Counted from the stretch's first letter, positions 20,073 to 43,047 are shown. The stretch: 64,000 bases of DNA from Candidatus Hodarchaeaceae archaeon (GCA_030018135.1 JASEGJ010000001.1:74991-138990); one strand, 5' to 3'. A program made the numbers and translations. The notes: generated by a model not told the origin, from the sequence alone.

Positions 20073-20147
20073 CGGGCCCGGAGGGATTCGAACCCTCGAC
20101 TCCCGGCTTAAAAGGCCGGTGCGCTAGCCAGACTGCGCCACGGGCCC
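20073..20147 (-). tRNA. tRNA-Lys(TTT), no intron, CCA not encoded
   Basis: perfect cloverleaf: GGGCCCG acceptor, D-stem GCGC, anticodon stem CCGGC/GCCGG with loop CTTTTAA, T-loop TTCGAAT. Confidence 0.85.
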
Positions 20148-20246
20148 CACATAGGTAGGAAATGGCTGAAAACTTTTTGTATTTATTTTTTTCGTCATTT
20201 TAAATTCATCACCCCCTGATTTAAGGCTTTCGAGTTTTAAAAAGGA

Positions 20247-20349
20247 GGCGCCCCGGGCGGGATTTGAACCCGCGTCGCCGGCTCGACAGGCCGACATGAT
20301 TGGCCTTCGGGCTCAAAGCTCGAATTAGACCCGACTACACTACCGGGGC
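20247..20349 (-). tRNA. atypical tRNA gene with about 28 extra nt (non-canonical intron(s)); candidate Asp(GTC), isotype unresolved
   Basis: canonical acceptor GCCCCGG/CCGGGGC, T-arm GCGGG-TTCAAAT-CCCGC, U8, A14, G18G19; a clean anticodon arm TCGGC-CTGTCGA-GCCGG lies just 5' of a 4-nt variable loop, but the 5' half carries the extra nt. Confidence 0.5.
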
Positions 20350-20409
20350 ACCGAGTTATTTCTCACCACGGTAGTTATCTGTTTTCCCCCTTTAACTTGA
20401 CGGCTTCGG

Positions 20410-21093
20410 TCACCCAAAAACCTTTAGAATATTCGGGTCGGTAAGGTCCTCGAACAGGTGGTCGGGCTTGTGTTTCATCAATTCCTCCTTTGAGTGAAAG
20501 CCCGTCGCCACCGCGATGGTCATGGCATCATGGGGCTTGCCGCACTCGATATCGTGAGTTGAATCTCCCACTATCACCAAATCCTTCGCTAGAAACTCCC
20601 TGCCGAATCTATATTTTGCCTCCGCCATCGCTTTTCCCACCAGCTCGGCCCTGTCCTTCGCCCCTGAGCCATAGACAAATAAATCAAAATATCCCTCAAG
20701 CCCACTTCCCCTCAAGATGCCCTGCGTTATCCCCTCCGTATTCCCCGTCAATACGCCCAAGCGATGGCCTCTCTTCTTGAGGTTTGCCAGCAGCTCCCTC
20801 ACGCCCGGCAGAACCTTCACTTTCCCCTCTGCGGCGGATTCTTGGAAAAAGGCCTCCAATTTCCTTACGGCGTCTGCCAATTTCCGTTTTACCTCCTTTT
20901 TGGGAATCCCTTTGAGCCCCGCTATTTCCTCAATTATGTTTGGGGTTATCTTTCCCCAAAATTCTATGTCGGTCAGCTTGGCGTTTACGCCGAATACCTC
21001 CCCGAACATCCTTTCGTATGCAACTTCATGGTGAGGTAGCGCATCCACCAGGGTTTGATCCACATCGAACAGGATCAGCTTCATCAAATCCAC
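20410..21093 (-). CDS. HAD-superfamily hydrolase (phosphatase / beta-phosphoglucomutase-like subfamily IA)
   Basis: LILFDVDQTL motif I, HAD motifs II-IV (LTGN, GDSTHD). Confidence 0.75.
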   Translation of the reverse strand: MDLMKLILFDVDQTLVDALPHHEVAYERMFGEVFGVNAKLTDIEFWGKITPNIIEEIAGLKGIPKKEVKRKLADAVRKLEAFFQESAAEGKVKVLPGVRELLANLKKRGHRLGVLTGNTEGITQGILRGSGLEGYFDLFVYGSGAKDRAELVGKAMAEAKYRFGREFLAKDLVIVGDSTHDIECGKPHDAMTIAVATGFHSKEELMKHKPDHLFEDLTDPNILKVFG

Positions 21094-21148
21094 ATAACCC
21101 TACGCCCCGGTTAATAAGGCCTTTGAACTTTGAGCTTGAGCGAAAAGT

Positions 21149-21273
21149 GGGCTGGCAGCGTCCTAGGGCTCCCGCACCCTCTCGGAGTGCAGTACTGCCT
21201 AGATCGCTGGCGGGCTTATCTTCGGCGTTCGGAATGAGAGCCGGAGTTTCCCCGTCGCTATGGCCGCCAACCC
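21149..21273 (-). rRNA. rrf: 5S ribosomal RNA, stand-alone
   Basis: minus-strand sequence GGGTTGGCGGCCATAGCGACGGGGAAACTCCGG...TCATTCCGAACGCCGAAGATAAGCCCGCCAGCG...GTACTGCACTCCGAGAGGGTGCGGGAGCCC...GCTGCCAGCCC matches conserved 5S blocks (helix I end pairing, loop C CCGAAC, loop E AGTACTG). Confidence 0.8.
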
Positions 21274-21380
21274 ATCAAAATTTGGCCCTTATGCTTATAA
21301 AAGGATGAGTAATCCGCAAACGACAATTTTGCAAAATACCCTGTTCGCTGCCGATCCTTGTTGGAACAAAAAGCTTGTGA

Positions 21381-21513
21381 TGGTCCCGCGGGCCGGATTT
21401 TCAGTGGCTCTGCCACGTTTGAACCGGCGACATGTCGGTACCTATCTTTTGGGTCTTTGGCCCGCCTCACGGCGAACAGCCGACCACTCTAACCAGGCTG
21501 AGTTACCGCGGGG
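21381..21513 (-). tRNA. tRNA gene with two putative introns (after anticodon region and in T-loop at 59/60), encoded CCA; anticodon probably GTT (Asn), uncertain
   Basis: acceptor CCCGCGG/CCGCGGG + A + CCA; D-arm ACTC-AGCCTGGTTA-GAGT; anticodon stem GTCGG...CCGAC separated by about 35 nt; T-stem GCCGG/CCGGC with TTCAAA-[20 nt hairpin GTGGC..GCCAC]-T. Confidence 0.5.
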
Positions 21514-21549
21514 ACCGAGTAAAGTTAGGATTTTCAAATTCTTAAACCT

Positions 21550-22656
21550 TCAGAAAAAATCATGTAACCTTCGAATCGCATCGAGCTTTTCCCTTCGCTC
21601 GAGCTTAGCGCCATCGAGCGCTCTCTCTAAAATTTCGGTGGTTCGCTGATACGTCGCCTTGTCGACGGGATAGGGCACGCCGTCCTTGCCCCCGTGCGCG
21701 AAGCTAAAACGAATGGGATCCCGCCAAGAGGGCGGCTTGCCGTAAATCAGGTCCGAAACCAAGGCCAAGGCCCTTATCGTCTTCGGCCCTATTCCCTGGA
21801 TGGCGACCAGTTCCTCGTAATTTGAAGGCTGTAGCTCATAAGCACGCTGCAGCGCGGCCATTGTCCGCTCGGTCAACTCTGTAATTCCGTGCTGAGTTGG
21901 CATGATGAGGGTTAGAACTTGAGGCGAGCGCGCTAGGTATTCATCGAGCGACCGCTGTTCTGCCTCTCGAACGTAAACTACTACCCGCCTCGGATCGTCG
22001 CGCACGAGATCTAAACTGGCCTTTCTCGTTTCCTCGCTCTCATGCGCAGTCATATCAAGCACGAGGTCTTCTCTACGATCTCCAGCGATGCCCGAGTGCG
22101 GCTCCTCGACGAAGCTGCGGACGCCCTCGGAGAGCCAGTGATAGCGCCTCGCCAGCCTATCGTGCATACCCTGTTGCACGACCGCCCAGTCGCCGTCCTC
22201 GCTGAGCACGAAGCAGTGATGGTAGAGCTGGTAGCCGTCCTGCACGCATGCGTTGTCCACCTTGGCCGCCATCCGGCTAGCGTATTTTAGTCTCTCAATC
22301 TTTTGAGAGGATATGGAAAAGACATCGCCGAGCTTCTCTATCTCGCTGGGGGTTCGCCTCGAGACCCTACCCTTCCCCCCGCACACCGCGATGCCCAGCT
22401 CATCCGGCCTTATCGCCTCCTTCAGCGCGCCCATTGTAACGGTGCTCAGTCCCGATGAATGCCAATCATATCCTAACACACAACCAAATGCTTGAAGGAA
22501 AAAAGGGTCGCCCAACCTCCGGAGGAACTCTTGCTTACCGTACTCGTGGACGATAATTTTACTTGTAGCTCCAGCTAGCCTTCTCATTCGGCTGAAAAGC
22601 CACGGGGGGCACCTGCCACCATGCAACGGCAGCTCAGCGATGCCGGTCCTTTTCAT
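21550..22656 (-). CDS. conserved hypothetical protein with C-terminal helix-hairpin-helix (DUF763-like)
   Basis: 368 aa; C-terminal VAIQGIGPKTIRAL HhH motif; family assignment from memory only. Confidence 0.45.
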   Translation of the reverse strand: MKRTGIAELPLHGGRCPPWLFSRMRRLAGATSKIIVHEYGKQEFLRRLGDPFFLQAFGCVLGYDWHSSGLSTVTMGALKEAIRPDELGIAVCGGKGRVSRRTPSEIEKLGDVFSISSQKIERLKYASRMAAKVDNACVQDGYQLYHHCFVLSEDGDWAVVQQGMHDRLARRYHWLSEGVRSFVEEPHSGIAGDRREDLVLDMTAHESEETRKASLDLVRDDPRRVVVYVREAEQRSLDEYLARSPQVLTLIMPTQHGITELTERTMAALQRAYELQPSNYEELVAIQGIGPKTIRALALVSDLIYGKPPSWRDPIRFSFAHGGKDGVPYPVDKATYQRTTEILERALDGAKLERREKLDAIRRLHDFF

Positions 22657-22717
22657 CGTAATCGGTTAAATTTTGATTTTTTGAAGGTAAAAGTATCGCA
22701 CTCAATCGGAAAGTCAA

Positions 22718-22789
22718 ATGTCTTACGTAAGACATCCTAACCCGCTTAGAACGCACCTGATGTAAAACAAGATGTCTGAGTTAGGACAT
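22718..22789. promoter_or_regulatory. two 5-8-5 inverted repeats ATGTC-N8-GACAT (22718-22735 and 22772-22789) in promoter region of the DUF763-like gene
   Basis: ATGTCTTACGTAAGACAT (perfect 18-bp palindrome) and ATGTCTGAGTTAGGACAT, 62-133 bp upstream of the minus-strand ATG at 22656. Confidence 0.4.
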
Positions 22790-22867
22790 CGTGGCCACGA
22801 TTTGGGAACCTACCCCAAAGTAACCCGGCCGAAGAATTTGGCCGAAATGCGGATTTGCCGCCGTCAG

Positions 22868-23092
22868 TCATTTCGTCAGGTAGTAGCCCGCTGCCTTCTG
22901 CCGCGCGACCCTCTTTGCAAAGCCCTTCGCCACGAGCTCCATCAAGGCGTTGTTAGTCATGCCCTTCGGCAGGCCGCTTGCGCGCATGACATCGTCCGCC
23001 GTCTTGAGCGCGTCCGGGCTGGTCGAGCCGAGCTTCTTCAACGCATCGTACACCTTCTTGCCAGCAGGCGTCAGGTCCGCCATTCTTTTCAC
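22868..23092 (-). CDS. small (74 aa) putative winged-helix DNA-binding protein
   Basis: short basic ORF directly upstream of the palindrome-bearing promoter; weak similarity to HTH regulators. Confidence 0.35.
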   Translation of the reverse strand: MKRMADLTPAGKKVYDALKKLGSTSPDALKTADDVMRASGLPKGMTNNALMELVAKGFAKRVARQKAAGYYLTK

Positions 23093-23113
23093 CCAATTTT
23101 CGCTCCTTTTTTG

Positions 23114-23962
23114 TCAGCGCTTGGGTTTAAAACCCTTACCTACTCGAATCTCCAAGCTCATATCCATGGCTGGCGCCCTAAACGTCATGTAGCTGGAGGA
23201 TAATATGTCCACGCCTGTCGCTGCATACTTTGCCACGTTCGCTAAATCAAGCTCGCCGGAGGCCTCGAGCAGCACGCGCTCGCGCAACCCTCGCTCGATC
23301 AACAGCCGCACCGCGCGCTTTATCTCGGCTGGTGTCATGTTGTCGAACATTAAGATGTCTGCTCCTGCCTCCGCTGCCTTGGGTGCATCCCCTGGCTTTC
23401 TCACCTCGATTTCAACCTTCTTCGAAAAGCTAGCACTGCGCGCCCGGCGGATGGCCTCGGCAACTCCGCCGGCGAGCTTGACATGGTTGTCCTTGATCAA
23501 CACACAGTCGTCCAACCTGAATCTGTGGGTATCGCCGCCGCCGAGCCTCACCGCACGTTTGTCGAAGTAGCTGAGCAACGGCATGACCTTGCGGGTCGCG
23601 GCGAGTATGATGTCCGGCTTGACCCGGCGAGCCTTTTCGAGCATTTCGCTGGTCGAGGTCGCCACCCCGCTCATTCGCATCAGTAAGTTCAACGCCGTTC
23701 GCTCGGCAACCAAGATGGATCGGGCTGGGCCCTCCAACTTCATCACGACATCACCGGGTTTGATTGGTTTTCCATCGGATTCCATGGCCTTTATGAGCAC
23801 GCCGACCTCCTCGAAAGCTAGGGCCGCCTCAACCACGCCTGCGAGTATCCCATGTTGCTTCGCAACAATTTCAGCGGTGACCACCGCTTCAGGCGGCACG
23901 ACGGTTTCGGTGGTTATGTCCCCGAAGCCTATATCCTCGGCCAACATCTTCCTAATTTTCAT
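23114..23962 (-). CDS. nadC: nicotinate-nucleotide pyrophosphorylase (quinolinate phosphoribosyltransferase)
   Basis: QPRTase motifs (ILMFDNM); start at internal Met to avoid overlap with nadA. Confidence 0.85.
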   Translation of the reverse strand: MKIRKMLAEDIGFGDITTETVVPPEAVVTAEIVAKQHGILAGVVEAALAFEEVGVLIKAMESDGKPIKPGDVVMKLEGPARSILVAERTALNLLMRMSGVATSTSEMLEKARRVKPDIILAATRKVMPLLSYFDKRAVRLGGGDTHRFRLDDCVLIKDNHVKLAGGVAEAIRRARSASFSKKVEIEVRKPGDAPKAAEAGADILMFDNMTPAEIKRAVRLLIERGLRERVLLEASGELDLANVAKYAATGVDILSSSYMTFRAPAMDMSLEIRVGKGFKPKR

Positions 23963-23975
23963 CTTCGCGAGTACA

Positions 23976-24908
23976 TTAGTCACGCGTTGCCCTCCCGGAT
24001 AACTCAAGCATGCGCTCGATCGCCCCACGGGCGCGATCTGCCAATTTTGGTGGCACGTGCACCTCATTTTTCCTATCTCTAAGGGCTAGGTAAACCTTTT
24101 GCAGGGTATGCTTTTTCATCTGCTCGCAAATCGCGGAGTTGAGCGCGGGCATGAACTCCTTGTCCGGATTTTCGCGCCTTAGCCGCTCGAGCATCCCAAC
24201 CTCAGTTCCGATGATAAATCGCTTGGCTGGCGACGCCCTCGCGCGAAGGAGCATTTGGCTAGTACTGCAGATATGCGTGGCGAGCTGCTGAACCTCGGGG
24301 TCGCATTCGGGGTGGACAATTACCTCGCCGTCAGGATATTTTTCCTTCAGCAGGGCGATGTCGGCGGGCGTGAACATCTTGTGTACGTAGCAATGGCCAT
24401 TTTCCGGGATCGGCACGATCGTCTTGTCCGTGCGACGCTGGGTGAACCAAGCTAGATTGCGATCCGGCCCGAACAAAATTTTTTCCTCGTCGAGCCCATC
24501 CACCACCTGCGGTGCGTTTGCGGAGGTGCAAGCAATATCCGCCTCCGCCTTTGCCTCGGCGAGGGTATTCACATACAACACCACGGCCGCCTGTGGATGT
24601 TTTTTCCTTGCCTCCCGTACCGCACTTGCCGGAAGCTGCGCCGCCATCGGGCACCTCGCCCTTGGATCTGGAATTAATACTGTTTTATCTGGGTTCAGCA
24701 GAGCCGCCGTCTCGGCCATAAAATTCACGCCGCAAAGCAGGATCAAGTCGGCATCCACCTTCGCCGAATACCTCGCCAGGTCCAACGAGTCCCCTATGTA
24801 ATCCGCGATGAGTTGAATCTCGGGGCGTTGATAGTTGTGCGCAAGGATGGCCGCACCCCTCCTCTCCTTCAGCTCCGCTATCCTGCGGTTCAACTCTGCG
24901 ATGTCCAT
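23976..24908 (-). CDS. nadA: quinolinate synthase A
   Basis: 310 aa, AILAHNYQ, FMAETA, three-Cys cluster pattern of NadA. Confidence 0.9.
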   Translation of the reverse strand: MDIAELNRRIAELKERRGAAILAHNYQRPEIQLIADYIGDSLDLARYSAKVDADLILLCGVNFMAETAALLNPDKTVLIPDPRARCPMAAQLPASAVREARKKHPQAAVVLYVNTLAEAKAEADIACTSANAPQVVDGLDEEKILFGPDRNLAWFTQRRTDKTIVPIPENGHCYVHKMFTPADIALLKEKYPDGEVIVHPECDPEVQQLATHICSTSQMLLRARASPAKRFIIGTEVGMLERLRRENPDKEFMPALNSAICEQMKKHTLQKVYLALRDRKNEVHVPPKLADRARGAIERMLELSGRATRD

Positions 24909-24941
24909 CTAAATCCCCAGCAACAGCTTTCGGCGGGCAAA

Positions 24942-25478
24942 TTAAGGTTTTGCCACCATGACTTCCGTGGCTTTTATAACGGCCTCGACGCGGTCGCCTG
25001 TCTTGAGCTCTAGCGCTTCGGCGGCCTCCCTAGTTATGTAAGCAGTTAGTACCGCCGGCCTAACCGCAATTTTTACCTTCGCTCCAATCTCGCCCAGCTC
25101 GACCGCCTCGATCACGCCTTTAAGCCGGTTCCTGGCGGACAACTTCATGGAAATACCCTCCCAAAAGGTTTTTTCCCGCACGATCTCCTCGAGCGCTTCG
25201 TCAATCAGCCTATAATCCTTCACCAACGCCTGTCCCTGCCCAGTCAAACGCATGCCCCCACCGCGCTTGCCTCCGCGAACCGCTTCCACGACCTTGAGGC
25301 CCAGCTTTTGTTCCAGCTTGCGGATGACGCCCCACGCGTGGCGGTATGACATCCCCAGCCTGTGGGCTGCGCGGTTCAGCGATTTCTCCTCCTCGATGGC
25401 GAGCAGGAGTTCCGCCCTCCCCCCGCCAATAATCGGCTCCTCCCCGCTTTGAATCCAAAGCTTTACCTTTGGCTTCAG
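24942..25478 (-). CDS. ModE-like regulator (N-terminal wHTH + C-terminal TOBE/Mop domain); no canonical start codon upstream of conserved N-terminus
   Basis: first ATG at 25352 lies inside the conserved HTH (…LNRAAHR-MSYRHAW); in-frame upstream translation KPKVKLWIQSGEEPIIGGGRAELLLAIEEEKSL matches the ModE N-domain; only a CTG (25476-25478) precedes it. Confidence 0.6.
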   Translation of the reverse strand: MKPKVKLWIQSGEEPIIGGGRAELLLAIEEEKSLNRAAHRLGMSYRHAWGVIRKLEQKLGLKVVEAVRGGKRGGGMRLTGQGQALVKDYRLIDEALEEIVREKTFWEGISMKLSARNRLKGVIEAVELGEIGAKVKIAVRPAVLTAYITREAAEALELKTGDRVEAVIKATEVMVAKP

Positions 25479-25495
25479 CCTGCTCCTGTCGTCCC

Positions 25496-26215
25496 TCAGA
25501 GGAACCCCCCTTCCATCATCCTTTTAATCCTCGCGTCCTCGGGCCGCTTGAGGACCTCCTCCACGGTGCCCTTTGCAATTAAATTGCCATCGAGCAGGTA
25601 CGCGACACGGTCTGATAACCTTCCCGCTTGAAATAAGTTATTTGTCGCAAGGACCACAGCGGATTCCCCCCTTATTTTTTTGATCACCTCTTCTATCGCC
25701 GCAACGCTTGCTGGGTCGAGGTTGGCGGTGGGCTCGTCGAGCAGCAAAAGCTCCGGCTCGAGCGTGAGCGCTCGCGCGAGGGCTACGCGCTGTTGCTCGC
25801 CCCCCGAAAGCTTCTTTGCCGGCCTTTCCGCGTGACCCCCCATACCGACAAGGTCTAGCGCCCATCCAACCCTCCGCCTCCTCTCGCCATCCGGTCGCCC
25901 CTGAAGCTCAAGCCCATAAGCCACATTTTTATAAACAGTTGTGTCGAAGAGGGCCGTCCTCTGGAAAACCATCGTGACCTTCCCTCTCAAAACGCCGGCA
26001 TTGACATCGCCGATCTTCATCCCTTTGTAAAATATCTCCCCGCTCGTCGGTTTGTCGAGAAAGGCCATCAGTCTAAGCAGGGTCGTCTTCCCGGAGCCGT
26101 TTGGCCCGACGATTGTCAGCGCTTCTCCCTCGCGGACATCTAAGTCTACCCCCTTGAGTGCAGATATTCCATCGTACTTCTTGACGACGCCCCTGAGTTC
26201 TTCCAAGGTTGCCAT
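25496..26215 (-). CDS. ABC transporter ATP-binding protein (TupC-like, tungstate/molybdate uptake)
   Basis: Walker A GPNGSGKT, LSGGEQQR signature; in operon with TupA/TupB-like genes. Confidence 0.75.
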   Translation of the reverse strand: MATLEELRGVVKKYDGISALKGVDLDVREGEALTIVGPNGSGKTTLLRLMAFLDKPTSGEIFYKGMKIGDVNAGVLRGKVTMVFQRTALFDTTVYKNVAYGLELQGRPDGERRRRVGWALDLVGMGGHAERPAKKLSGGEQQRVALARALTLEPELLLLDEPTANLDPASVAAIEEVIKKIRGESAVVLATNNLFQAGRLSDRVAYLLDGNLIAKGTVEEVLKRPEDARIKRMMEGGFL

Positions 26216-26842
26216 TTAGTCCCTCCGTAACATATTGACCGCCAGGGTGAGGGCGAAAACTATCGCCATCAAAACGACGGCCAGCCCGATGCATAGCAAT
26301 ATCTCACCCCTCGCCGTTTCTAGGGCGATCGTCGTGGTCATGACGCGCGTGTAGCCGTATATGTTCCCACCCACCATCATCGCCACACCCAGTTCGGAAA
26401 TTGCTCGATTGAATGCGGCGACTACCGCCAGTGTGGCGCCTTTCTTCGCCTCCCTTAAAACTGCGAGGGAGGTTTGCCTCTCGGAGGCACCGAGCGTCCG
26501 CGCCAAGTCCTTGATCTCCGGGTCTACGCCCTCCAACGCGCTCGCCATGAAGCTCACGATAATCGGTGTTATCAGGATCGCCTGCCCGATAATCATCGCC
26601 GCTGGAGTGTACAAAAGGCCCAAGGGGCCGAGCGGGCCTTTCCTCGCAAATAACATGAATAGGATGAGGCCAAGCGCCACCGTCGGGATGCCCAAAAGGG
26701 CGTTAAACATCGCCCTCAGTACGCGCCTACCCACGAAGTCCCGCAGGCCGATGACCGCGGCCAACGGCAGCCCCCAGAGTACCGCCAACAAAGTCGCAGT
26801 GCCTGAAATCCAGAGCGATCGAAGGACGATGTCGAGCAACAT
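26216..26842 (-). CDS. ABC transporter permease (TupB-like)
   Basis: about 210 aa 5-6 TM permease with EAA-like loop; start trimmed to internal Met to avoid overlap with binding-protein gene. Confidence 0.7.
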   Translation of the reverse strand: MLLDIVLRSLWISGTATLLAVLWGLPLAAVIGLRDFVGRRVLRAMFNALLGIPTVALGLILFMLFARKGPLGPLGLLYTPAAMIIGQAILITPIIVSFMASALEGVDPEIKDLARTLGASERQTSLAVLREAKKGATLAVVAAFNRAISELGVAMMVGGNIYGYTRVMTTTIALETARGEILLCIGLAVVLMAIVFALTLAVNMLRRD

Positions 26843-26846
26843 CCCC

Positions 26847-27815
26847 TCACCCATAAAGCTCCTCGTGCCCACCCCTGTAGATCGGTGGACATTCGGTATT
26901 TTCAAAAAACGCGTACTCCCTGATCCAGCCAGCGATCTGCGCGTCCGCGTTCTCCTTGAGCAATTTCACGGCAGGGTAAAACAACGGTTGTCCGTATTCG
27001 TCCTTCCCGTAATCGCCGATCATCGCCTGGCCTTCGGCAGACACCAGAAATTTTATAAATGCGATCGCGCCCTCAAAATTCAGTTCGGGGTAAGTTTTTT
27101 GGCTGACCGCCATGACGCTGTAGACATTTAACAGTTCCTTCCCTTGTCCGACGAGGACACGGAGATCGATCAATCCTCGGTTTGTGTACTGGAGATAAGT
27201 GCCAACGTCAGCTAAGGTGTATGCCCTCTTCTCGCTCGCCATCCGGAGCGCCGCACCCATACCCACACCAAGTTCGATATGCCAAGGTTCCCGGCGCAAC
27301 CGGGATACATCGAATCCGGCCGCGGTCCAGAGATCCTTTTCCTTTATGTGGGTGCCGGAGTTGTCGCCGCGGGAGATCCAAGTTGTTAAACCAGCTCTCC
27401 CGGCCTCGGCTATTTTTCTAAGCGCCTCGATCGGCGGCAAGTCCTTAATGCCAACCGGATCTTCAAGGGGACCAGTTATTGCGAAGAAATTGTAAGCTAT
27501 TATTTTTCGAACCATGCCCAAGTTATCCTCCATGAACTGAAATTCCGCAGATGGCGCGTGTACCAGCAAAACATCGGCCTCCCCCATCTTGGCTTGATAG
27601 ATCGCCTGCCCCGTGCCGACTGGGATTAAAAGGATCTTTGTGTTATACTCCTCTTCGTAATATTTTCCGATGAAATCCAGAAGGCCGGTGTCATACAAGC
27701 TTGTTGTAGTTGCAACTTTTAGCTTCGGTTTTCCCCTCTGCCATAGTTCAACGTACCCGACCGCTGCGATGCTGCATAAAACCAACGCTATTGAAACAAA
27801 GGTAATCTTCTTCAT
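26847..27815 (-). CDS. tungstate/molybdate ABC substrate-binding protein (TupA/WtpA type)
   Basis: signal/anchor peptide, VATTTSLYDTGLLDFI motif characteristic of TupA-family oxyanion-binding proteins. Confidence 0.7.
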   Translation of the reverse strand: MKKITFVSIALVLCSIAAVGYVELWQRGKPKLKVATTTSLYDTGLLDFIGKYYEEEYNTKILLIPVGTGQAIYQAKMGEADVLLVHAPSAEFQFMEDNLGMVRKIIAYNFFAITGPLEDPVGIKDLPPIEALRKIAEAGRAGLTTWISRGDNSGTHIKEKDLWTAAGFDVSRLRREPWHIELGVGMGAALRMASEKRAYTLADVGTYLQYTNRGLIDLRVLVGQGKELLNVYSVMAVSQKTYPELNFEGAIAFIKFLVSAEGQAMIGDYGKDEYGQPLFYPAVKLLKENADAQIAGWIREYAFFENTECPPIYRGGHEELYG

Positions 27816-27884
27816 GTTCCCCGATATTTAAATCGTTATGTCTTTATAAGCATAACGATAAACCAGCGCAAATATCCAGATCCC

Positions 27885-33338: not shown

Positions 33339-33461
33339 TGGTGGGGTCGCTGGGATTCGAACCCAGGTCCCTGGCTTTTTTGCCCGACCTTGTCCCATTT
33401 GGCAGACCATTGAGAACTTGATCTTAAGCCAGAAGGATAGGCCAAGCTACCCCACGACCCC
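33339..33461 (-). tRNA. tRNA gene with about 45-nt insertion (intron) in anticodon region and encoded CCA; isotype unresolved
   Basis: acceptor GGGGTCG/CGACCCC + A + CCA, D-loop AGCTTGGCCT, T-arm CTGGG-TTCGAAT-CCCAG, anticodon stem CTGGC...GCCAG separated by about 52 nt; no canonical anticodon loop could be assembled by hand. Confidence 0.5.
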
Positions 33462-33492
33462 AAAAAAACAGGTGATAAAAAGGATAAAAATT

Positions 33493-34817: not shown

Positions 34818-34925
34818 TGGAGCCCCGGGTGGGCTTTGAACCCACGACCTACTGATCGCTTGCCGCCTGGTTACAAGTTTCGACAGCTCACCTTCAGTCG
34901 CTCTACCAGGCTGAGCTACCGGGGC
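34818..34925 (-). tRNA. tRNA gene with about 31-nt insertion in anticodon loop region, encoded CCA; isotype unresolved
   Basis: acceptor GCCCCGG/CCGGGGC + T + CCA, D-arm GCTC-AGCCTGGTA-GAGC, anticodon stem ACTGA...TCAGT, variable AGGTC, T-arm GTGGG-TTCAAAG-CCCAC. Confidence 0.55.
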
Positions 34926-35105
34926 CCAAATAATAACTAAATTTTCAAGTTAATTTTCGTTTCCCTCATGCCCTCAAACTGGCGATGCCTCATGCTCACA
35001 AATCTACCGTCCCCCTGGCTCTCAACTTGCCAACAATGAAATTTTTGCACGATCGGCGTGCTATACCGAGCAGCAATAATTGGCGCCAATCGACAAAAGA
35101 CGGGG

Positions 35106-35831: not shown

Positions 35832-35891
35832 GCTCCACCGAACGAACTTTGCCCTGCGGGCTTTAAAAACCTCCCCACCAAACCTCCGAAT

Positions 35892-36989
35892 ATGCGCCGC
35901 CTGCTAGCTAGCATGTTCATCACCTCATTCGCCATGGGCATCGTCGGGCTAGTCCTCGTACTCTACGCAAAGGACCATCTAAACGCGAGCTATACCGAGA
36001 TTGGGCTGCTCGGGCCAGCGTATGCTACACTCCATGTCCCGCTCTCCGTGCCAGCTGGGCGCCTAGCCGACCGCCACGGCAGGGGGCCGCTTCTCACCCT
36101 CGGCCTCCTGTCGACTGCGTGCACTTTTCTGCTATATTCCCGTGCGAACACCGTGGCTTGGTTGCTTGTGGTGCGCCTGCTGCATGGCGCGGCGGAGGCA
36201 CCGATCTGGGTGAATGCTCAAAGCGCGGTGGTCGAGTTTTCGACTCCCATCAACCGCGGGCGGGCGATGGGTGCATATGGTGTATCTTGGGCGACGGGCT
36301 TTACGTTGGGGCCGTTCATCGGCGGTCTGCTGTCCGGAGCCATGCGTCCGATGTGGTCGTTCCTCATCGGCGCCGCCCTAACCCTCCTCGCAGCCGCGGT
36401 GACAGCAGGCGCCCACTTCCATAAGCCGAAGGTAACCCCTGAGAAAATGGCGCTGCGCGGCCTGCTGCCAGCCTGCTTGATAGGCATGCTCTATTTTGGC
36501 ATAGTCGCCATCGTCTTCACCCTCTTTCCGGCCTACGCCAGACAACTCGACATCTCCGAGCCGCGGATAGGGCTGTTATTGGCGCTATTCGGAGGGATCC
36601 GCATCGTGTTTTTGGTGCCCATGGGCGGGCTCTCAGATAGGTTTGGGAGCCGCCCAATCATCCTGCTGGGGATGCTCGGGCTGGCTGCCTCGCTGGCCAG
36701 CATAGCCGCAACGACGGAATATCTGATGTTCGTCGTCGCGGTCCTATTCCTCGGGATATCGGAGGGTGCGACCTACCCAGCGGTGATGAGCATGGTGTCA
36801 AAGGTAGGGGGGAATGAAAATCGCGGCTACGTGCTCGGTGTATTCAATGCTGTCGCCACGGTTGGCTGGGGCCTGCTACCCGGCGTCGGCGGGCTCACCG
36901 CGGACGTTCTCGGTCCGACGGCACCCTACCTGATGTGTGCACTCATAGCGCTGTCCATGTTTGCCTTCGTGTGGAGGTCCTCGCTGTGA
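35892..36989 (+). CDS. MFS-family transporter
   Basis: 12 predicted TM helices, GRLADRHGRGP MFS motif A; start at MRRLLASMF chosen to avoid overlap with tpiA. Confidence 0.75.
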   Translation: MRRLLASMFITSFAMGIVGLVLVLYAKDHLNASYTEIGLLGPAYATLHVPLSVPAGRLADRHGRGPLLTLGLLSTACTFLLYSRANTVAWLLVVRLLHGAAEAPIWVNAQSAVVEFSTPINRGRAMGAYGVSWATGFTLGPFIGGLLSGAMRPMWSFLIGAALTLLAAAVTAGAHFHKPKVTPEKMALRGLLPACLIGMLYFGIVAIVFTLFPAYARQLDISEPRIGLLLALFGGIRIVFLVPMGGLSDRFGSRPIILLGMLGLAASLASIAATTEYLMFVVAVLFLGISEGATYPAVMSMVSKVGGNENRGYVLGVFNAVATVGWGLLPGVGGLTADVLGPTAPYLMCALIALSMFAFVWRSSL

Positions 36990-37094
36990 AAGCGTGGGTT
37001 GGCGATCACCGCTTAGATCCGATCCCAGTGTGCTTCGATTTGCCCTAGCTCAGAAAATGGATATGCGTGCCATCAAAAGCTCATGAGTCCAATG

Positions 37095-37213
37095 TGCCGG
37101 GGGCGGGACTCGAACCCGCGATCTCAGGATTTCTCACATCATGGTTGATCAGCACTCACAGCCAGTGGTTTGGGCTATGAGTCCTGCGCTTTAACCAGCT
37201 AAGCTACCCCGGC
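37095..37213 (-). tRNA. tRNA-Met(CAT) elongator-type with 46-nt intron at canonical 37/38
   Basis: acceptor GCCGGGG/CCCCGGC, D-arm GCTT-AGCTGGTTA-AAGC, anticodon stem CAGGA/TCCTG, exon loop CTCATA|…|A gives CUCAUAA; intron 3' TGAG pairs with C32-A35 and leaves an AAA bulge (BHB-like). Confidence 0.8.
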
Positions 37214-37453
37214 TGGTTGATTATTTATTTTTCGATTTTATTTTAACTTGTCGTAAAGGGTCCCACAAACGTTTGGCGCCGGGTCTATGAAATTCACGAG
37301 ACCTGTTCAAAGCCCCATTGGGGAACCCGCACCTAAGCTCTTAAAAAAAGTAATAGACGGGTGAGATGTACCGACCGAGAGGACGGAGAGATCGTCGAAA
37401 GTATTTAAAACCTTTTCTATTGCTGGGGGCTTCTCAAATTACTTCTGAAAAAT

Positions 37454-38146
37454 CTATCTAAGCTTTGACGACCGCATGAATCTTAAGAAATCTTTTTTTG
37501 ACCTCAGGACAACGCAGCCGCCCTCGTAGCCCACGAATACTATGTCGGCAGAATTGACAAACAGGCCATTCTCCACGGCACCCGGCACGTGGTCGAGGGC
37601 TTCCTCGAGTTCAGCTGGATGGGGGATCGAGTCGAATTTAACATCGACGATATAATTCCCGTTGTCGGTTACGAACGGCATGCGCTCCCTAGTCATGCGC
37701 AGCACTGGCTTGCCATTGAGTTCGGCCAGCCTCCGCATGGTGTACTTTTGCACGAACGGCAATATCTCGACGGGCACCGGCCTGCGCTCGCCCAATCGCC
37801 TCACGAGCTTGGTGCGATCGACGATTATCGCGATCCTCTTCGACGCACTCATCAGTATTTTCTCCCGCGTATGGGCTCCTCCGCGCCCCTTTATCATGTT
37901 AAAGTTCGGATCTATCTCGTCGGCGCCGTCGATCATCAGGTCGAGCTTGGGATACTCGTCCGACGTGCTCAAGCGCAATCCCCTGCCCGCCGCGAACTTT
38001 TGAATTGCGAACGAGCTCGGCACGAAGGTGGCGTTAATCTCGCGCTCGGCTAGGATGCGGACGACATGAGCAACCGTCGTGCCAGAACCCAAGCCGACGA
38101 CCATTCTTCCTCTAACAAGCTTCGCTGCAGCCTTCGCGGCCGCCAT
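37454..38146 (-). CDS. rpiA: ribose-5-phosphate isomerase A
   Basis: GLGSGTTV, DGADEID, KGRGGAHTREK motifs; longest ORF extends to 38242. Confidence 0.85.
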   Translation of the reverse strand: MAAAKAAAKLVRGRMVVGLGSGTTVAHVVRILAEREINATFVPSSFAIQKFAAGRGLRLSTSDEYPKLDLMIDGADEIDPNFNMIKGRGGAHTREKILMSASKRIAIIVDRTKLVRRLGERRPVPVEILPFVQKYTMRRLAELNGKPVLRMTRERMPFVTDNGNYIVDVKFDSIPHPAELEEALDHVPGAVENGLFVNSADIVFVGYEGGCVVLRSKKDFLRFMRSSKLR

Positions 38147-38235
38147 CTTCCATTCCTCGACCACCAAAGCAAGCCCAAGTGAAGCTTCTAACGCTGGGGG
38201 CTTAATAATTTCCTCTACGACATTATTAAATAGCG

Positions 38236-38796
38236 TTGACAATATTTGAAAATGGTGAGGCTGTGAAACGCGTCATACCAGTTAGGGCTGCGATGACCGA
38301 AAAAGTTCTCACGGCTGGCCCTAGGACAACAGTTGCCAAGGCCGCTAAGCTCATGAGCGAGCGCGGCGTCGGTAGCATCATTATCACTCAAGGCAAGAAG
38401 CCGGTGGGCATCCTAACGGAGCGAGACCTGCTCATGAAAGTCGTTTCCGTGGACCTACGACCCAGCAAGGTACTCGTCAGCAAGGTGATGTCGAGTCCGG
38501 TCTTAACTGTCGGTCCCGAGACGGAAGTTGCCGAGGCTGCCCGAGTCATGATCCGCAATAGGATCAGGCGCCTGCCCGTCGTTGACCGCGGGCGCCTCGT
38601 CGGAATCGTAACAGCGAGCGATATCACTGCGATCTCGCCGGAACTTATAGAGGTGTTACCGGAGCGCCCGGAACTGCCACCCCGTGAGGAGATAGATGAG
38701 AGCGTCTGCGAGGTCTGCGGCGAGGTGACCGCCTCACTTCACGAAGTAAATGGCATGTGGGTTTGTGAAAATTGTCGCGACTTTTTGGGCGGGTAG
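38236..38796 (+). CDS. CBS-domain pair protein with C-terminal zinc ribbon
   Basis: two CBS motifs then CEVCGEV…CENC. Confidence 0.7.
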   Translation: MTIFENGEAVKRVIPVRAAMTEKVLTAGPRTTVAKAAKLMSERGVGSIIITQGKKPVGILTERDLLMKVVSVDLRPSKVLVSKVMSSPVLTVGPETEVAEAARVMIRNRIRRLPVVDRGRLVGIVTASDITAISPELIEVLPERPELPPREEIDESVCEVCGEVTASLHEVNGMWVCENCRDFLGG

Positions 38797-38804
38797 ATGA
38801 TGTC

Positions 38805-39620
38805 ATGGCCTGCCGCGATATGCTCATGCGAACTCGCGTTAGCGAAGTGATGCAACCCTGCTCGTGCTTCGTCAGTTCGCGCGACTTGGTGACCAAGGCC
38901 CGCTCACTTATGCGCACCAGCGGCCTTCGAACGTTGCCCGTCGTCGACGATGGCAAGCTGACAGGCATCATAACCGCGCGGCAAATGCTTCGCGTTACCT
39001 CAACCCGCTCAAACATCCCGGTGGCGGGTTTGATGTTCCCCCCTAGGCTTGTGGCTACGCCAGACGACACCATCGGGAAGCTCGTCAAGGATATGATCGA
39101 ACTCGAGATTTCGGCCGTGCCCGTCGTCAAAAGCGTTAGCGACCGAACGATATCCGGCATCGTTGGGCTCGATGACATACTAAGACATATCTCCAAGTCT
39201 TCAAAGCCAAAACTAACGGTGGAGAGAATAATGAAAAGGAAGGTCGCCACATGCACCCCCACGGATGAAATCTCGCGGGTATGGGACATTATGGAGGAAG
39301 CCCACTTCTCCGGCCTGCCTGTCGTGCGTTACGACAAGCGCAAGCGTGCGCTAGAGGTCATAGGCATGATAACCCGCTCGGACATCATTCGCTCGGGAGC
39401 GACGAGGCTGGCCGAGGAGTCCGACAAGGGGCGCTTCCGGAGCCCGCCTCGCGTAAAGAGCCTCATGCGAACCCCCGCTATAACGGCATCCCCTAACATG
39501 TCCCTCTCCGATGCCGTTGAGCTGATGCTGAAGCGCAACATCGGTCGCTTGCCAGTTGTTGAGGACGGCAAGCTAGTTGGGATCGTCAGCCGCGGCGATG
39601 TGATAAAAGCCTGCCTGTAG
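38805..39620 (+). CDS. CBS-domain protein (four CBS repeats)
   Basis: repeated hxxxGhhT/S…RLPVV CBS signatures. Confidence 0.7.
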   Translation: MACRDMLMRTRVSEVMQPCSCFVSSRDLVTKARSLMRTSGLRTLPVVDDGKLTGIITARQMLRVTSTRSNIPVAGLMFPPRLVATPDDTIGKLVKDMIELEISAVPVVKSVSDRTISGIVGLDDILRHISKSSKPKLTVERIMKRKVATCTPTDEISRVWDIMEEAHFSGLPVVRYDKRKRALEVIGMITRSDIIRSGATRLAEESDKGRFRSPPRVKSLMRTPAITASPNMSLSDAVELMLKRNIGRLPVVEDGKLVGIVSRGDVIKACL

Positions 39621-39718
39621 GCGAGCGAATGCGAAGGTTACCCCACGTTGGCTATAAGTCGCGCGACCGGGGCCCGCTGGAGTTCAAATCTAGGCTGAGG
39701 AGGGAGGAGGGCAACATC

Positions 39719-40534
39719 ATGCCGATCGCGCGGCGGAATGTTTTAACCATTCCTCCAACCGTGCGGATAAAAGATGCGGCGGAGTTGATGGTCAAAAATA
39801 AGGTCCGAAGGCTCCCCATAACGGACCCCGGTACGAAACGACTGATCGGCATCGTTACAACGCGCGATATAATAGATTTCCTCGGCGGGGGCGAGCGATC
39901 TAAAATCATCCAAAATAAGTTCAAGGGCAATTTCCTCGCTGCGGTGAACGACCCCATTCGCACGATAATGTCGGAGAAAGTTGTTCATGGAACATTTGAC
40001 ATGTCGATCAAGGATGTTGCAAAGCTTTTGTTGAGAACGGGCGTTGGGGGCGCGCCCATCCTCGACGAACGGGCGCACGTCGTTGGCATGGTATCGGAGC
40101 GAGATTTTGTCCCATACGTACCGATTGCCGCAGGGATTCTAGTGGGCTATCACATGACTCGAAAAGTTGTGACCGCCGAGCCCGAGCTGCAGATCAAAGA
40201 AGCCGCTCGGCGGATGGTTTCCAGGGGCGTACGCCGCCTGCCGGTCGTCTGCGACCGGGAGCTCGTTGGGATCGTCACGAGCGTCGATATCCTCCGGTAC
40301 TTTGGTACGAGCGAGATGTTTGAGCACATGGCCCATGGAAGGGTGGACGAGGCAATGTCGGTTGGGGTCGATAGGATAATGACGAGCAAGGTACTCACGG
40401 TAACGCCGCAAACTGACATAGGCGAGGCGGCTGCGCTGATGGTCGAGCGCGGCTGCGGCGGCTTACCTGTTGTAGAAAGGGATGAACTCGTGGGCATAAT
40501 GACCGAGCGCAACGTGCTGGAGTTGTTAATTTGA
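39719..40534 (+). CDS. CBS-domain protein (four CBS repeats)
   Basis: CBS signatures; start at internal Met MPIARRNV. Confidence 0.7.
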   Translation: MPIARRNVLTIPPTVRIKDAAELMVKNKVRRLPITDPGTKRLIGIVTTRDIIDFLGGGERSKIIQNKFKGNFLAAVNDPIRTIMSEKVVHGTFDMSIKDVAKLLLRTGVGGAPILDERAHVVGMVSERDFVPYVPIAAGILVGYHMTRKVVTAEPELQIKEAARRMVSRGVRRLPVVCDRELVGIVTSVDILRYFGTSEMFEHMAHGRVDEAMSVGVDRIMTSKVLTVTPQTDIGEAAALMVERGCGGLPVVERDELVGIMTERNVLELLI

Positions 40535-41397
40535 AGGTTGTCGACGTTATGAGCTCGCCCGTGGTTGCGATAGGGTCTACGGGGCCAATAGCACATGCAA
40601 AGAACCTGATGTTGCGCCACGACATAAAACGTCTTGTTGTGGTCGAGCGAGGGGGCCCGGTCGGAATAGTTTCAATGAGCGATCTCGCGGAGCGCCTTGA
40701 CAGCGGAACCTCAGCTTGGCGACGACGCCCCATCGATCGCATTCCGATCGCGCGGGTGATGAGCAAAAACTTGATTACGGTGTCACCAGGCACCGATTTG
40801 AGCGAGGCCGCCAGGTTGCTGCTGAAGCACGGCATTAGTAGCTTGGTAATAACCGAGGGCAAAAAACTTATCGGTATCCTGACAAAGACGGATTTGGCGC
40901 GCTTCTTCGCTAAAAATTTGAGAGGTCGAGCGATGGTTCGAGAGCTGATGAGCACAAGTGTAATAACCGTGAACCGTCGACACTCGCTCGCTCACGTCGT
41001 CGAACTCATGGAAAGAAATAACGTGGGTCGTGTGGTGGTCGTGGATGGCGCTAAGCCGATAGGCACAGTGACTGCAAGCGATGTAGCATTCGCGCAGCTC
41101 GAAAGACCAGTCGAGGGCATAGCTCGACGCGAACTCAAATTCACGAGAAAACCTGCGCGAGCCGATAGGCCAAAATATAGATACGTGAAGTATGTCGCCC
41201 TGCTTACCGCTGAGGATATGATGAGGTCTGAGCTGCTCACCGTCGAAGCGGGCGAAGATGCCGCAATGGCGGCTGAGCGAATGCTCAAGTATGGGAAAAG
41301 CGGTCTGCCGGTCGTCGAGCGTGGCGAGTTGGTGGGCATCCTGACGAAGACCGACTTCACTAAAGGAATCGCGAGGCTTGGACGAAATGCGCGTTAG
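40531..41397 (+). CDS. CBS-domain protein (four CBS repeats)
   Basis: CBS signatures; 4-nt overlap with upstream paralog. Confidence 0.7.
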   Translation: MKVVDVMSSPVVAIGSTGPIAHAKNLMLRHDIKRLVVVERGGPVGIVSMSDLAERLDSGTSAWRRRPIDRIPIARVMSKNLITVSPGTDLSEAARLLLKHGISSLVITEGKKLIGILTKTDLARFFAKNLRGRAMVRELMSTSVITVNRRHSLAHVVELMERNNVGRVVVVDGAKPIGTVTASDVAFAQLERPVEGIARRELKFTRKPARADRPKYRYVKYVALLTAEDMMRSELLTVEAGEDAAMAAERMLKYGKSGLPVVERGELVGILTKTDFTKGIARLGRNAR

Positions 41398-42181
41398 TCA
41401 AATAATGACCCCAAATGTCATTACCATAGACAAGGATATATCGCTGGCCGAGGCGATAGGACAAATGCGACGCCACGAGATATCGCGCCTAGTGGTCACG
41501 GATGCTGGAAAGATCGATGGAATCGTCACGGAGCGGGATATTGCTCGAGAATTGGGCTCGACGCGCAGCTACCGTTTGCCCCCTGGTAGGATGCACGTTT
41601 CAAACGTCATGACTGCCAATCCGGTGACGGTCGCACCCGACATCACGGCAAAGCGCGCCGCCGAACTCATGCTCGATAACGACATCAGTGGGTTGCCGGT
41701 AGTTGAGGATGACAAACTGGCCGGCATCGTCACGAAAATGGATTTCGCAAAGGTATGCATGGGTTTTGATGATATTTTCGCGGGGCAGATTATGCAGTCC
41801 AGCCCGCGAACCGCCACGCCAAGCGACCGCGTGATACATGCACGCAGGTTGCTGTTTGAAGAGGACCTAATTAGCCTGCCCGTGGTCGAGGCGGGCGAAC
41901 TCGTGGGCATCGTAACGGTGCGGGATATTGCGATGTGCCTCGCCGCGTTTCAGGAGGTGGTGCCGGACAGGCACAAGAGCGAGCGCATCCGCAATTTGTT
42001 GGTCGAGGACATCATGACCCAGCCGGCGACAACCACGCATACCGACGCAAAGCTTTCCGACATCGCACGCGTCATGTTCGAGCGACGCTTTTCCAGCTTG
42101 CCGGTGCTCAACTTGGAGGACGAGCTCGTCGGTTTGGTCACGAGGACCGAGCTGACCGAGGTCGCGCGGGAGCGCCTTTGA
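41378..42181 (+). CDS. CBS-domain protein (four CBS repeats)
   Basis: CBS signatures; fifth tandem paralog. Confidence 0.7.
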   Translation: MDEMRVSQIMTPNVITIDKDISLAEAIGQMRRHEISRLVVTDAGKIDGIVTERDIARELGSTRSYRLPPGRMHVSNVMTANPVTVAPDITAKRAAELMLDNDISGLPVVEDDKLAGIVTKMDFAKVCMGFDDIFAGQIMQSSPRTATPSDRVIHARRLLFEEDLISLPVVEAGELVGIVTVRDIAMCLAAFQEVVPDRHKSERIRNLLVEDIMTQPATTTHTDAKLSDIARVMFERRFSSLPVLNLEDELVGLVTRTELTEVARERL

Positions 42182-42273
42182 TGTCTCGAGCGGGCTAGTT
42201 TTCGTACCGGTGACGAAGCTGAACGTTAAGATTAAGTCGACATGGTCGTTATGAGCCAAGCGCCGGAGGGGGC

Positions 42274-42849
42274 ATGCCGATGAAGATAAAGCTCACGCGC
42301 ACGTTGCTACTGAAGGCCTTCCTTGCACAAGTGGTACTTTTCATCACGCTGGCCTTAGCAATCGCTTGGTGGCGAGGGTGGCTCAAGGATCTAGGACTGA
42401 ACCTCCAAAATCCAACCTTCGGCGTAGCGGCGGGCTTGATCGTGGGCGCAGCCATGGGCGCCGCTTCGATCGCATGCGATGAAGTGGGGCTCAAAAACCC
42501 ACTTGCTGATGAGATCTCCCGCACCCTAACCTTGAGCGACATCCTGTTTGTAAATCTCGTGCTGATTGCGCCCAGCGAGGAAATCTTCTTCAGGGGGCTG
42601 CTCATCCCCAGGATAGGTTTAGCGCCGTCTGCAATCACGTTCGGCTTGGCGCATGTGGTTGGCTACCGCGCACTGAGCGAGGTCGTGGTGGCGACGGTTT
42701 TTGGGCTGGCGCTTGGCTGGCTCTTTCTATCATCTGGCAGTTTGCTTGGCCCGTGGCTGGCGCATGCTCTGGCGAATGTTGTAGCAATGGAGCATATCCA
42801 TCGGCGGGCCGGAAAAGGTCCCAAGCGATCGTCCGCGCGCGCTGGGTGA
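42274..42849 (+). CDS. CPBP-family intramembrane metalloprotease (CAAX protease / Abi family)
   Basis: EEIFFRGLL (EExxxR) and FGLAHV motifs, multiple TM helices. Confidence 0.75.
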   Translation: MPMKIKLTRTLLLKAFLAQVVLFITLALAIAWWRGWLKDLGLNLQNPTFGVAAGLIVGAAMGAASIACDEVGLKNPLADEISRTLTLSDILFVNLVLIAPSEEIFFRGLLIPRIGLAPSAITFGLAHVVGYRALSEVVVATVFGLALGWLFLSSGSLLGPWLAHALANVVAMEHIHRRAGKGPKRSSARAG

Positions 42850-42950
42850 GGCGAGCGGAATCAAAATTTTTGTGCTCGACTAAACGACCGAGCTGAATCT
42901 TCGCCCAGAATAGAATAAATAACCAAGTTCTAAATAAATTGAAGTTAAGT

Positions 42951-43047
42951 GCGGCCGTGGTCCAGCCTGGTTAGGGCGTTAAGCGCCGCCAAAGGACCCA
43001 GGCTCCCCAAGCCTGTGGCGCGGGTTCGAATCCCGCCGGCCGCACCA
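42951..43047 (+). tRNA. tRNA gene with about 20-nt insertion near the D-arm/anticodon-stem junction, encoded CCA; probable Gly(CCC)
   Basis: acceptor GCGGCCG/CGGCCGC + A + CCA; D-stem GTCC with two candidate 3' partners (GGGC before, GGAC after the insertion); anticodon arm CAGGC-TCCCCAA-GCCTG (C at position 33); T-arm GCGGG-TTCGAAT-CCCGC. Confidence 0.55.

Follow-up and report, generated by a model that had tools for sequence, protein, structure and literature searches.

Transfer RNA (tRNA) genes with several introns were reportedly described from the Thermoproteales by Sugahara in 2007 and 2008 and by Fujishima in 2010. Introns in this order average 0.84 per tRNA gene, with a maximum of three in one gene, while the figure across archaea is 0.21. 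In Pyrobaculum, Thermofilum and Caldivirga (PMC4033280, PMC8450103), introns of 15–45 nucleotides (nt), bounded by the bulge-helix-bulge (BHB) motif, occupy sites in the D-loop, the anticodon stem and loop and the T-loop, up to three to a gene; they are gained and lost between relatives, and neighbouring introns require ordered removal, all of which is shared by the genes described here. Introns so close together that the first must be removed before the BHB of the second can form are also described in the tRNAscan-SE 2.0 paper. The Euryarchaeota are credited in reviews with few intron-containing tRNA genes, and with canonical introns only. Methanopyrus kandleri pre-tRNA-Glu(UUC) carries a canonical intron together with a D-arm intron of the HBh' type (PMC5829648), and disrupted tRNA genes have been noted at survey level for the Hadesarchaea (Kaneta 2018, NAR 46:1958, PMC5829648). 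The present analysis concerns the tRNA genes of a 64,000-nt stretch of archaeal DNA (GCA_030018135.1, JASEGJ010000001.1:74991–138990), referred to below as the window, with positions counted from its first nucleotide. It holds eight tRNA genes, six of which are interrupted by ten introns in total; Ser(UGA) and Lys(UUU) are uninterrupted. We put the probability at about 0.9 that all eight are functional and that the six interrupted ones carry archaeal BHB introns, in an uncultured host belonging to the Hadarchaeota.

The basis of this reading, namely the motifs, the canonical spliced products and the agreement with orthologues, is seen directly. A first-pass annotation had found the eight genes by hand and described Ser and Lys as simple; all eight loci are indeed tRNA genes (by Rfam, by ARAGORN on the spliced products, and by reading of the loci), and neither Ser nor Lys has an intron. 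The same annotation had proposed multiple, non-canonically placed introns, which turned out to be an understatement, since there are ten introns in six genes, including one gene with three.

Introns were located by an exhaustive search in which up to three BHB-bounded segments were removed from a locus and the product was scored as a cloverleaf. In the register used, the 5' exon ends with four nucleotides of the central helix (H) and two bulge nucleotides, and the intron ends with four complementary nucleotides and two bulge nucleotides. This register, which is said to go back to Marck and Grosjean in 2003, gives the canonical 37/38 geometry, in which position 32 pairs with the third-last nucleotide of the intron. 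All ten introns show the core of a 3-nt bulge, a 4 base pair (bp) helix and a second 3-nt bulge, with cuts two nucleotides into the bulges, in exactly the register needed to regain the cloverleaf. Shuffled introns did so in 1.7–17% of cases per intron, with a summed log10 of –12.9 over the ten (a joint chance of about 1e-13), and the flanking helices of most introns were found in fewer than 0.1–1% of shuffles. The best solutions of the search had 20–21 of 21 stem pairs and 7–8 of the 8 conserved features, and were the sole solution for Thr and Gly. Solutions with two introns in Asp, or with a different multi-intron path in Pro or Met, were less parsimonious or lower scoring and were set aside. 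Five introns, namely Tyr 35/36 and 59/60, Pro 33/34, and Thr 30/31 and 37/38, have outer (h) and inner (h') helices of at least 2 bp each; for Thr 37/38 the outer helix measures 5 bp once the 30/31 intron has been removed, and 1 bp in the unspliced context. In unconstrained minimum free energy (MFE) folds, Gly 21/22, Tyr 59/60 and Pro 33/34 form their BHB and Thr 30/31 its H helix and 3' bulge, and the z-scores of all six pre-tRNAs against shuffles range from –2.9 to –4.7.

Four of the ten introns lie at the canonical site, 37/38, and six elsewhere (21/22 twice, and 30/31, 33/34, 35/36 and 59/60 once each; Table 1). Several details of the earlier description change accordingly in size or number. 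The insertion in the 5' half of Asp is real but measures 26 rather than about 28 nt, and sits between the last base of the D-loop and position 22; the one in Gly has the 20 nt estimated for it, not at the junction of the D and anticodon arms but at 21/22, as in Asp. In Tyr, the T-loop intron at 59/60 with its 20-nt hairpin was described exactly, while the gene contains three introns instead of two insertions and starts at 21512 instead of 21513; its anticodon loop, CUGUAGA, was obtained solely by the three-intron path. The totals of 45 and 31 nt given for Pro and Thr hold, each being made up of two introns (28 + 17 and 16 + 15 nt) around a micro-exon of 4 or 7 nt, respectively. The first-pass annotation had been unable to assemble an anticodon loop with U33 for these two genes; the spliced loops, UUUGGGA in Pro and CUUGUAA in Thr, both have a normal U33. 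For Met, site (37/38) and BHB motif were correct, and the length is 45 rather than 46 nt.

Table 1. Position and structure of the tRNA genes, their introns and micro-exons, and the 5S ribosomal RNA (rRNA) gene of the window. H, central helix; h, outer helix; h', inner helix; bits are Rfam scores.
Feature	Position	Strand	Description
tRNA-Ser(UGA)	9029..9113	-	long variable arm, no intron, no encoded CCA; ARAGORN; Rfam tRNA 61 bits
tRNA-Lys(UUU)	20073..20147	-	no intron, no encoded CCA; ARAGORN; Rfam 70.8 bits; orthologues L002-L004
tRNA-Asp(GUC)	20249..20349	-	one intron; CC (20247-20248) then T at 3' end; ARAGORN on spliced form
Asp intron	20300..20325	-	26 nt at 21/22; HBh', H GGUC/GGCC, h' 4 bp, outer helix 1 bp
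5S rRNA	21150..21271	-	between tRNA-Tyr and tRNA-Asp; Rfam 94.7 bits; same arrangement in L002
tRNA-Tyr(GUA)	21381..21512	-	encoded CCA, three introns, C1-G72, A73; L002 orthologue is Tyr GTA by ARAGORN
Tyr intron 1	21457..21475	-	19 nt at 35/36; hBHBh', h 4 bp, H GGCU/GGCC, h' CGCC/GGCG, GUGA loop
Tyr micro-exon A36 G37	21455..21456	-	2 nt between introns 1 and 2
Tyr intron 2	21440..21454	-	15 nt at 37/38; H CUGU/AUAG
Tyr intron 3	21398..21417	-	20 nt at 59/60, T-loop; hBHBh', h is T-stem 5 bp, H UUCA/UGAA, h' 5 bp
tRNA-Pro(UGG)	33339..33461	-	encoded CCA, two introns; Rfam 41.2 bits
Pro intron 1	33398..33425	-	28 nt at 33/34; hBHBh', H UGGC/GCCA, h' 6 bp
Pro micro-exon U34 G35 G36 G37	33394..33397	-	4 nt (UGGG)
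Pro intron 2	33377..33393	-	17 nt at 37/38; H UUUG/CAAA
tRNA-Thr(UGU)	34818..34925	-	encoded CCA, two introns; Rfam 50.6 bits
Thr intron 1	34879..34894	-	16 nt at 30/31, within anticodon stem; H CGAC/GUCG, h 3 bp, h' 2 bp
Thr micro-exon A31-A37	34872..34878	-	7 nt (ACUUGUA)
Thr intron 2	34857..34871	-	15 nt at 37/38; H CUUG/CAAG
tRNA-Met(CAU), elongator-type	37095..37213	-	no encoded CCA, one intron; Rfam 63.4 bits; eight orthologues downstream of RpiA
Met intron	37131..37175	-	45 nt at 37/38; H CUCA/UGAG, h is anticodon stem
tRNA-Gly(CCC)	42951..43047	+	encoded CCA, one intron, loop UCCCCAA; Rfam 52.9 bits
Gly intron	42974..42993	+	20 nt at 21/22 (D-loop/D-stem junction); HBh', H UGGU/GCCA, h' 5 bp, outer helix 1 bp

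Standard gene finders handle these loci poorly. At its gathering score the Rfam tRNA model matches six of the eight, and even at E≤5 the Asp (20247–20349) and Tyr (21381–21513) loci remain without a match; a relaxed-threshold Rfam scan of the window gave no further tRNAs. ARAGORN reports only four tRNAs in the unspliced window, one with a wrong 5' end (Asp) and one with an undetermined anticodon. Its intron mode confidently read Pro as Phe AAA, Thr as Ala AGC and Met as Ser AGA, wrong identities that were dropped in favour of BHB-aware splicing. After removal of the introns in silico, all six interrupted genes are read by ARAGORN, one of the checks proposed in the first-pass annotation, as normal, canonical tRNAs (Asp GTC, Tyr GTA, Pro TGG, Thr TGT, Met CAT and Gly CCC). 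Because such genes are missed or mis-assigned, tRNAs in metagenome-assembled genomes (MAGs) of Hadarchaeota are liable to be undercounted in annotation unless the search is BHB-aware and iterative. A 3'-CCA had been reported for four genes, and is encoded by Tyr, Pro, Thr and Gly; Ser, Lys and Met lack it, and Asp has CC followed by T. A search of the window with half-tRNA profiles (nhmmer) recovered both halves of the eight genes and nothing else, in particular no orphan halves, so that the window gives no evidence of split or permuted tRNA genes.

Orthologues were available from a Hadarchaeia MAG locus (L002) and, for Met, Thr, Pro and Gly, from metagenomic loci neighbouring RpiA (L082–L089). 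Since intronless or uninterrupted orthologues match the predicted spliced exons, the exon-intron junctions are confirmed. The tRNA-Tyr of L002 has a contiguous CUGUAGA and an intact T-loop, without the 59/60 intron, and instead of three introns a single 12-nt insertion in the anticodon arm, which opens with ACCCAA as does intron 2 of the window; its register could lie anywhere from 37/38 to 40/41, and a search for a strict BHB around it found none. The CGA anticodon preferred by the relaxed solver for this gene was rejected as implausible. In the tRNA-Asp of L002 the same 11-nt D-loop is uninterrupted, and a canonical intron of 17 nt is present instead. Likewise, the tRNA-Gly(CCC) genes of L083 and L085 have an identical, uninterrupted D-arm and a 15-nt intron at 37/38, so that both Asp and Gly have their intron at 21/22 in the window and at 37/38 in relatives. 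Both introns of tRNA-Thr (30/31 and 37/38) are kept in L082 and L083, and the mature sequences of the window and L082 are identical at 74 of 74 positions while the introns differ. The tRNA-Pro(UGG) of L082 (5552–5626, -, opposite strand) is intronless, compared with two introns in the window, and equals the spliced exons of the window through position 43. In L083, tRNA-Pro has introns at both window sites, of 27 nt (33/34) and 20 nt (37/38). Thus L082, the closest RpiA relative, lacks the Pro introns, whereas the more distant L083 retains them, and the L082 gene suggests a recent, precise loss of introns or a gene replacement. Constant exons combined with intron positions that shift among close relatives are the expected signature of real introns that are rapidly gained and lost. 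Another apparently interrupted gene was seen at positions 10674–10801 of L005, from an unclassified archaeon (RpoB 65% identical): this is a 128-nt tRNA-Ser-like gene with apparent insertions in the D-arm and the anticodon region.

Several observations weigh against the interpretation of all ten insertions as functional BHB introns. In the D-loop introns of Asp and Gly the outer helix is reduced to 1 bp (relaxed HBh'), and three introns at 37/38, those of Tyr, Pro and Met, have an inner helix of 1 contiguous bp; relaxed BHB motifs are poorly cut by the classical euryarchaeal alpha4 and alpha'2 enzymes. A bare 4-bp H helix is frequent by chance, with dozens of candidates per gene in the scan, and for this reason the argument rests on the coincidence of the BHB with the exon junctions. 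In its MFE structure, pre-tRNA-Tyr forms a 7-bp hairpin in preference to the 35/36 BHB. Comparison of 50 open reading frames (ORFs) of the window with Pfam revealed no endA, rtcB or cca. Finally, tRNA-Gly is without the normally invariant U33: its anticodon loop, UCCCCAA (43001–43007), has C33, while the orthologues in L083 and L085 have UUCCCAA, and the C33 may be a real substitution or an error of sequencing or assembly.

This C33, and the failure of the Rfam model to detect Asp and Tyr at all, would also fit a reading of the atypical loci as tRNA pseudogenes in decay, whose insertions arose at random and are not spliced out at all. Such decay is very improbable, however, as a BHB core in the correct register bounds every insertion and the exons splice to perfectly canonical products, as the exons are kept while introns diverge (in Thr as described above, and in Met with exons 82–84% identical compared with 49% for the variable part of the intron), and as synteny and intron positions are conserved in relatives. 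A more local alternative concerns the locus at 21381–21512, which could be read as tRNA-Asn(GUU) with one canonical intron of 34 nt and the T-loop intron. The search did return a valid BHB path for it (H CUGU/AUAG, h 5 bp, 21 of 21 stem pairs), and one with an intron fewer than tRNA-Tyr requires. It would nevertheless leave a pyrimidine (C) at position 37 and disregard a complete hBHBh' at 35/36 (h 4 bp, h' 4 bp) that was seen in only 0.07% of shuffles. The syntenic L002 orthologue, with the same body and its contiguous CUGUAGA, is moreover Tyr GTA by ARAGORN, and the acceptor end of the locus has C1-G72 and A73, which we take to be the archaeal tyrosine identity set. The identity Asn is accordingly held to be most unlikely, and the three-intron tRNA-Tyr is retained.

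The density of ten introns in eight genes, and the presence of a gene with three, are at the level of the Thermoproteales, and the first-pass annotation had regarded such architectures as characteristic of Thermoproteales/Thermofilaceae-type archaea. Were the host a crenarchaeon of this type, the introns would be cut by a crenarchaeal (alpha-beta)2 endonuclease with its specific loop. This attribution is wrong, because three lines of evidence place the host elsewhere. The unsplit RpoB of the window (16474–19785) is 82, 80 and 78% identical to the proteins of three Candidatus Hadarchaeia/Hadarchaeota MAGs; the match after these three is at 65%, and Thermofilaceae/Thermofilum reach only 59–60%, so that this marker protein is clearly closer to the Hadarchaeota. 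The order tRNA-Tyr, 5S, tRNA-Asp, tRNA-Lys, rpoB is common to the window and the Hadarchaeia locus L002, and the NCBI taxonomy places the Hadarchaeota under the kingdom Methanobacteriati, apart from the Thermoproteales. A crenarchaeal host is thus already refuted at the level of RpoB, and we regard it as the least probable of the three alternatives. Judged by marker protein and synteny, the host is an uncultured archaeon of the Hadarchaeota. One protein of the window was also matched on the Logan assembly of SRR23186779, taken as metagenome-type and as coming from an uncultured organism.

For the interrupted genes, actual splicing, the order of splicing and the type of enzyme are what we infer. 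Each gene would be driven by its own A/T-rich promoter. In the established pathway of archaeal tRNA splicing, EndA cleaves and RtcB joins; here EndA would recognise the BHB at each exon-intron boundary (two 3-nt bulges with the 4-bp helix between them) and cut after the second bulge nucleotide on both sides, and an RtcB-type ligase would then join the exons. In Tyr, Pro and Thr, closely spaced introns lie only 2, 4 and 7 nt apart, respectively. In Tyr, the 35/36 intron lies between CUGU, a central-helix strand of the 37/38 motif, and the bulge AG|A of that motif; in Pro, the 33/34 intron splits the strand UUUG, so that H UUUG/CAAA exists only without intron 1. Because the upstream intron interrupts the central helix or bulge of the 37/38 motif in this way, it would have to be removed, and the exons ligated, before that motif could form. 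Such an upstream-first order would avoid loss of the 2-nt and 4-nt micro-exons, which simultaneous cutting would release. In Thr, C32–U34 take part in the outer helix of the 30/31 motif and are also needed for the central helix of 37/38, and the two motifs should therefore never be complete together. A CCA-adding enzyme would be needed for the four genes without an encoded CCA.

As no endA lies in the window, the type of endonuclease rests on one published genome. The host lineage is reported to carry an alpha4-type enzyme, and that of the present host is presumably, by analogy with the literature, an alpha4 form with the L3 insertion rather than the (alpha-beta)2 form with the crenarchaeal loop found in Thermoproteales, from which the host differs also in belonging to another archaeal kingdom. 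The relaxed HBh' introns at the 3' end of the D-loop in Asp and Gly resemble that of M. kandleri tRNA-Glu, another representative of the Euryarchaeota in the wide sense. In M. kandleri, however, such genes are few and the enzyme is an (alpha-beta)2 type without the specific loop, whereas six of the ten introns described here are non-canonical. Closest in taxonomy is the tRNA set of Hadesarchaea archaeon YNP_N21, from the same phylum, which is known only as proportions in a survey figure (Kaneta 2018, PMC5829648), while individual genes, positions, micro-exons and turnover are given here; searches of the literature on Hadarchaeota together with tRNA introns or splicing endonuclease gave nothing more specific than the remark in that survey. 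Since the Hadesarchaea exception and introns with ordered removal have both been published, the present case is a further example of an architecture that is already known, and what is new is its gene-by-gene account in this host. It documents dense, non-canonical tRNA introns outside the TACK archaea (Thaumarchaeota, Aigarchaeota, Crenarchaeota and Korarchaeota), and the combination of ten introns in eight genes, micro-exons of 2–7 nt and an enforced order of removal bears on the proposed co-evolution of endonuclease architecture and tRNA disruption. No similarity between introns that might hint at transposition was noticed by eye, and no systematic comparison was made.

A box C/D guide nested in the intron of archaeal pre-tRNA-Trp was reportedly described by Clouet d'Orval in 2001 and Singh in 2004, and the intron of tRNA-Met in the window has some features in common with it. 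The Met intron was aligned with those of seven relatives located downstream of RpiA (eight sequences in total; the orthologues include L082 3151–3270 and L083 10734–10852, and further ones lie in L084–L089). It is 45–48 nt long across the lineage and consists of a variable 5' third followed by a near-invariant GG-Y-Y-GUGAGUG-CUGA, a spacer of 6–8 nt, and R-AUGAUGU-G-R-GAA. Mean pairwise identity is 0.93 in the putative guide, 0.95 in the D'-like CUGA and 1.00 in the C'-like AUGAUGU, compared with 0.82–0.84 in the exons and 0.49 in the 5' part of the intron, meaning that guide and box elements are better conserved than the tRNA exons themselves. The two boxes are 6–8 nt apart in all eight sequences, within the 3–9 nt of internal boxes that form a K-loop. 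The 10 nt upstream of CUGA pair with A31–A37 and the first three nucleotides of the intron (97.5% paired, with one compensatory change from G:C to A:U), and the fifth position of this duplex, counted from CUGA, is C34. The predicted MFE structure of pre-tRNA-Met is the guide duplex and not the BHB (z = –4.7). The anticodon stem and H helix are 100% paired in the eight sequences, with compensatory changes in the stem.

In archaeal elongator tRNA-Met, C34 is known to be methylated (Cm34) under the direction of C/D guides while the precursor still contains its intron; in Pyrococcus and haloarchaea the guides are separate small RNAs (sRNAs). These stand-alone guides, sR-tMet and the Pyrococcus sRNA, have the same target as is predicted for the Met intron. 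It is conceivable, at odds somewhat below even, that the intron is a minimal box C/D guide with a single K-loop that directs 2'-O-methylation of the wobble C34 of its own tRNA. As in the pre-tRNA-Trp intron, the guide would extend across the exon-intron junction and the target would be five nucleotides from CUGA, the arrangement of a D' guide. The Met intron differs from that of tRNA-Trp in its host gene, in having only one box pair and no terminal C/D boxes, and in its length of 45–48 nt compared with about 100 nt. In the alignment there is no conserved box C upstream of the guide and the downstream CUGA is not conserved; Rfam, including searches at relaxed thresholds, finds no snoRNA family in the intron, and a regular-expression search of the window found no complete C/D sRNA. 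Alone, the half motif CUGA-N(4-9)-AUGAUG is not significant, as the window contains it four times. If the intron does act as a guide, pre-tRNA-Met would toggle between two conformations: one for methylation, the predicted MFE, in which the anticodon is paired to the guide beside box D', and one for splicing, in which the anticodon is paired to the second copy of GUGAG and forms the BHB. The sole intron-nested guide described so far being that of tRNA-Trp, this would be the second modification guide encoded by an intron of archaeal tRNAs, and it would account for retention of the Met intron while other introns turn over.

The 5S rRNA gene of the window stands alone within a cluster of tRNA genes (19796–21512, -), in which tRNA-Tyr and the 5S gene are followed by an HAD hydrolase, tRNA-Asp and tRNA-Lys; directly downstream of the cluster come an ORF of 79 aa and rpoB. 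The same order of Tyr, 5S, Asp, Lys and rpoB is found in L002 (2825–5411), but there is no room there for the HAD ORF of about 680 bp between 5S and Asp. Downstream of tRNA-Gly (43413–49470), eight of nine consecutive ORFs (103–422 aa) are without a Pfam or PHROG match, the 103-aa ORF (44530–44841) having been compared with PHROGs only; the ninth encodes a cupin-domain protein (44059–44430). An element integrated at tRNA-Gly was considered and rejected, as neither a second copy of the 3' end of the tRNA nor a PHROG match in the neighbouring unknown ORFs was found. Between tRNA-Met and tRNA-Gly (38236–42181, +) lie five consecutive ORFs made up of CBS domains only, two to four in each, and a sixth CBS protein (59916–60452) adjoins a Na+/H+ exchanger.

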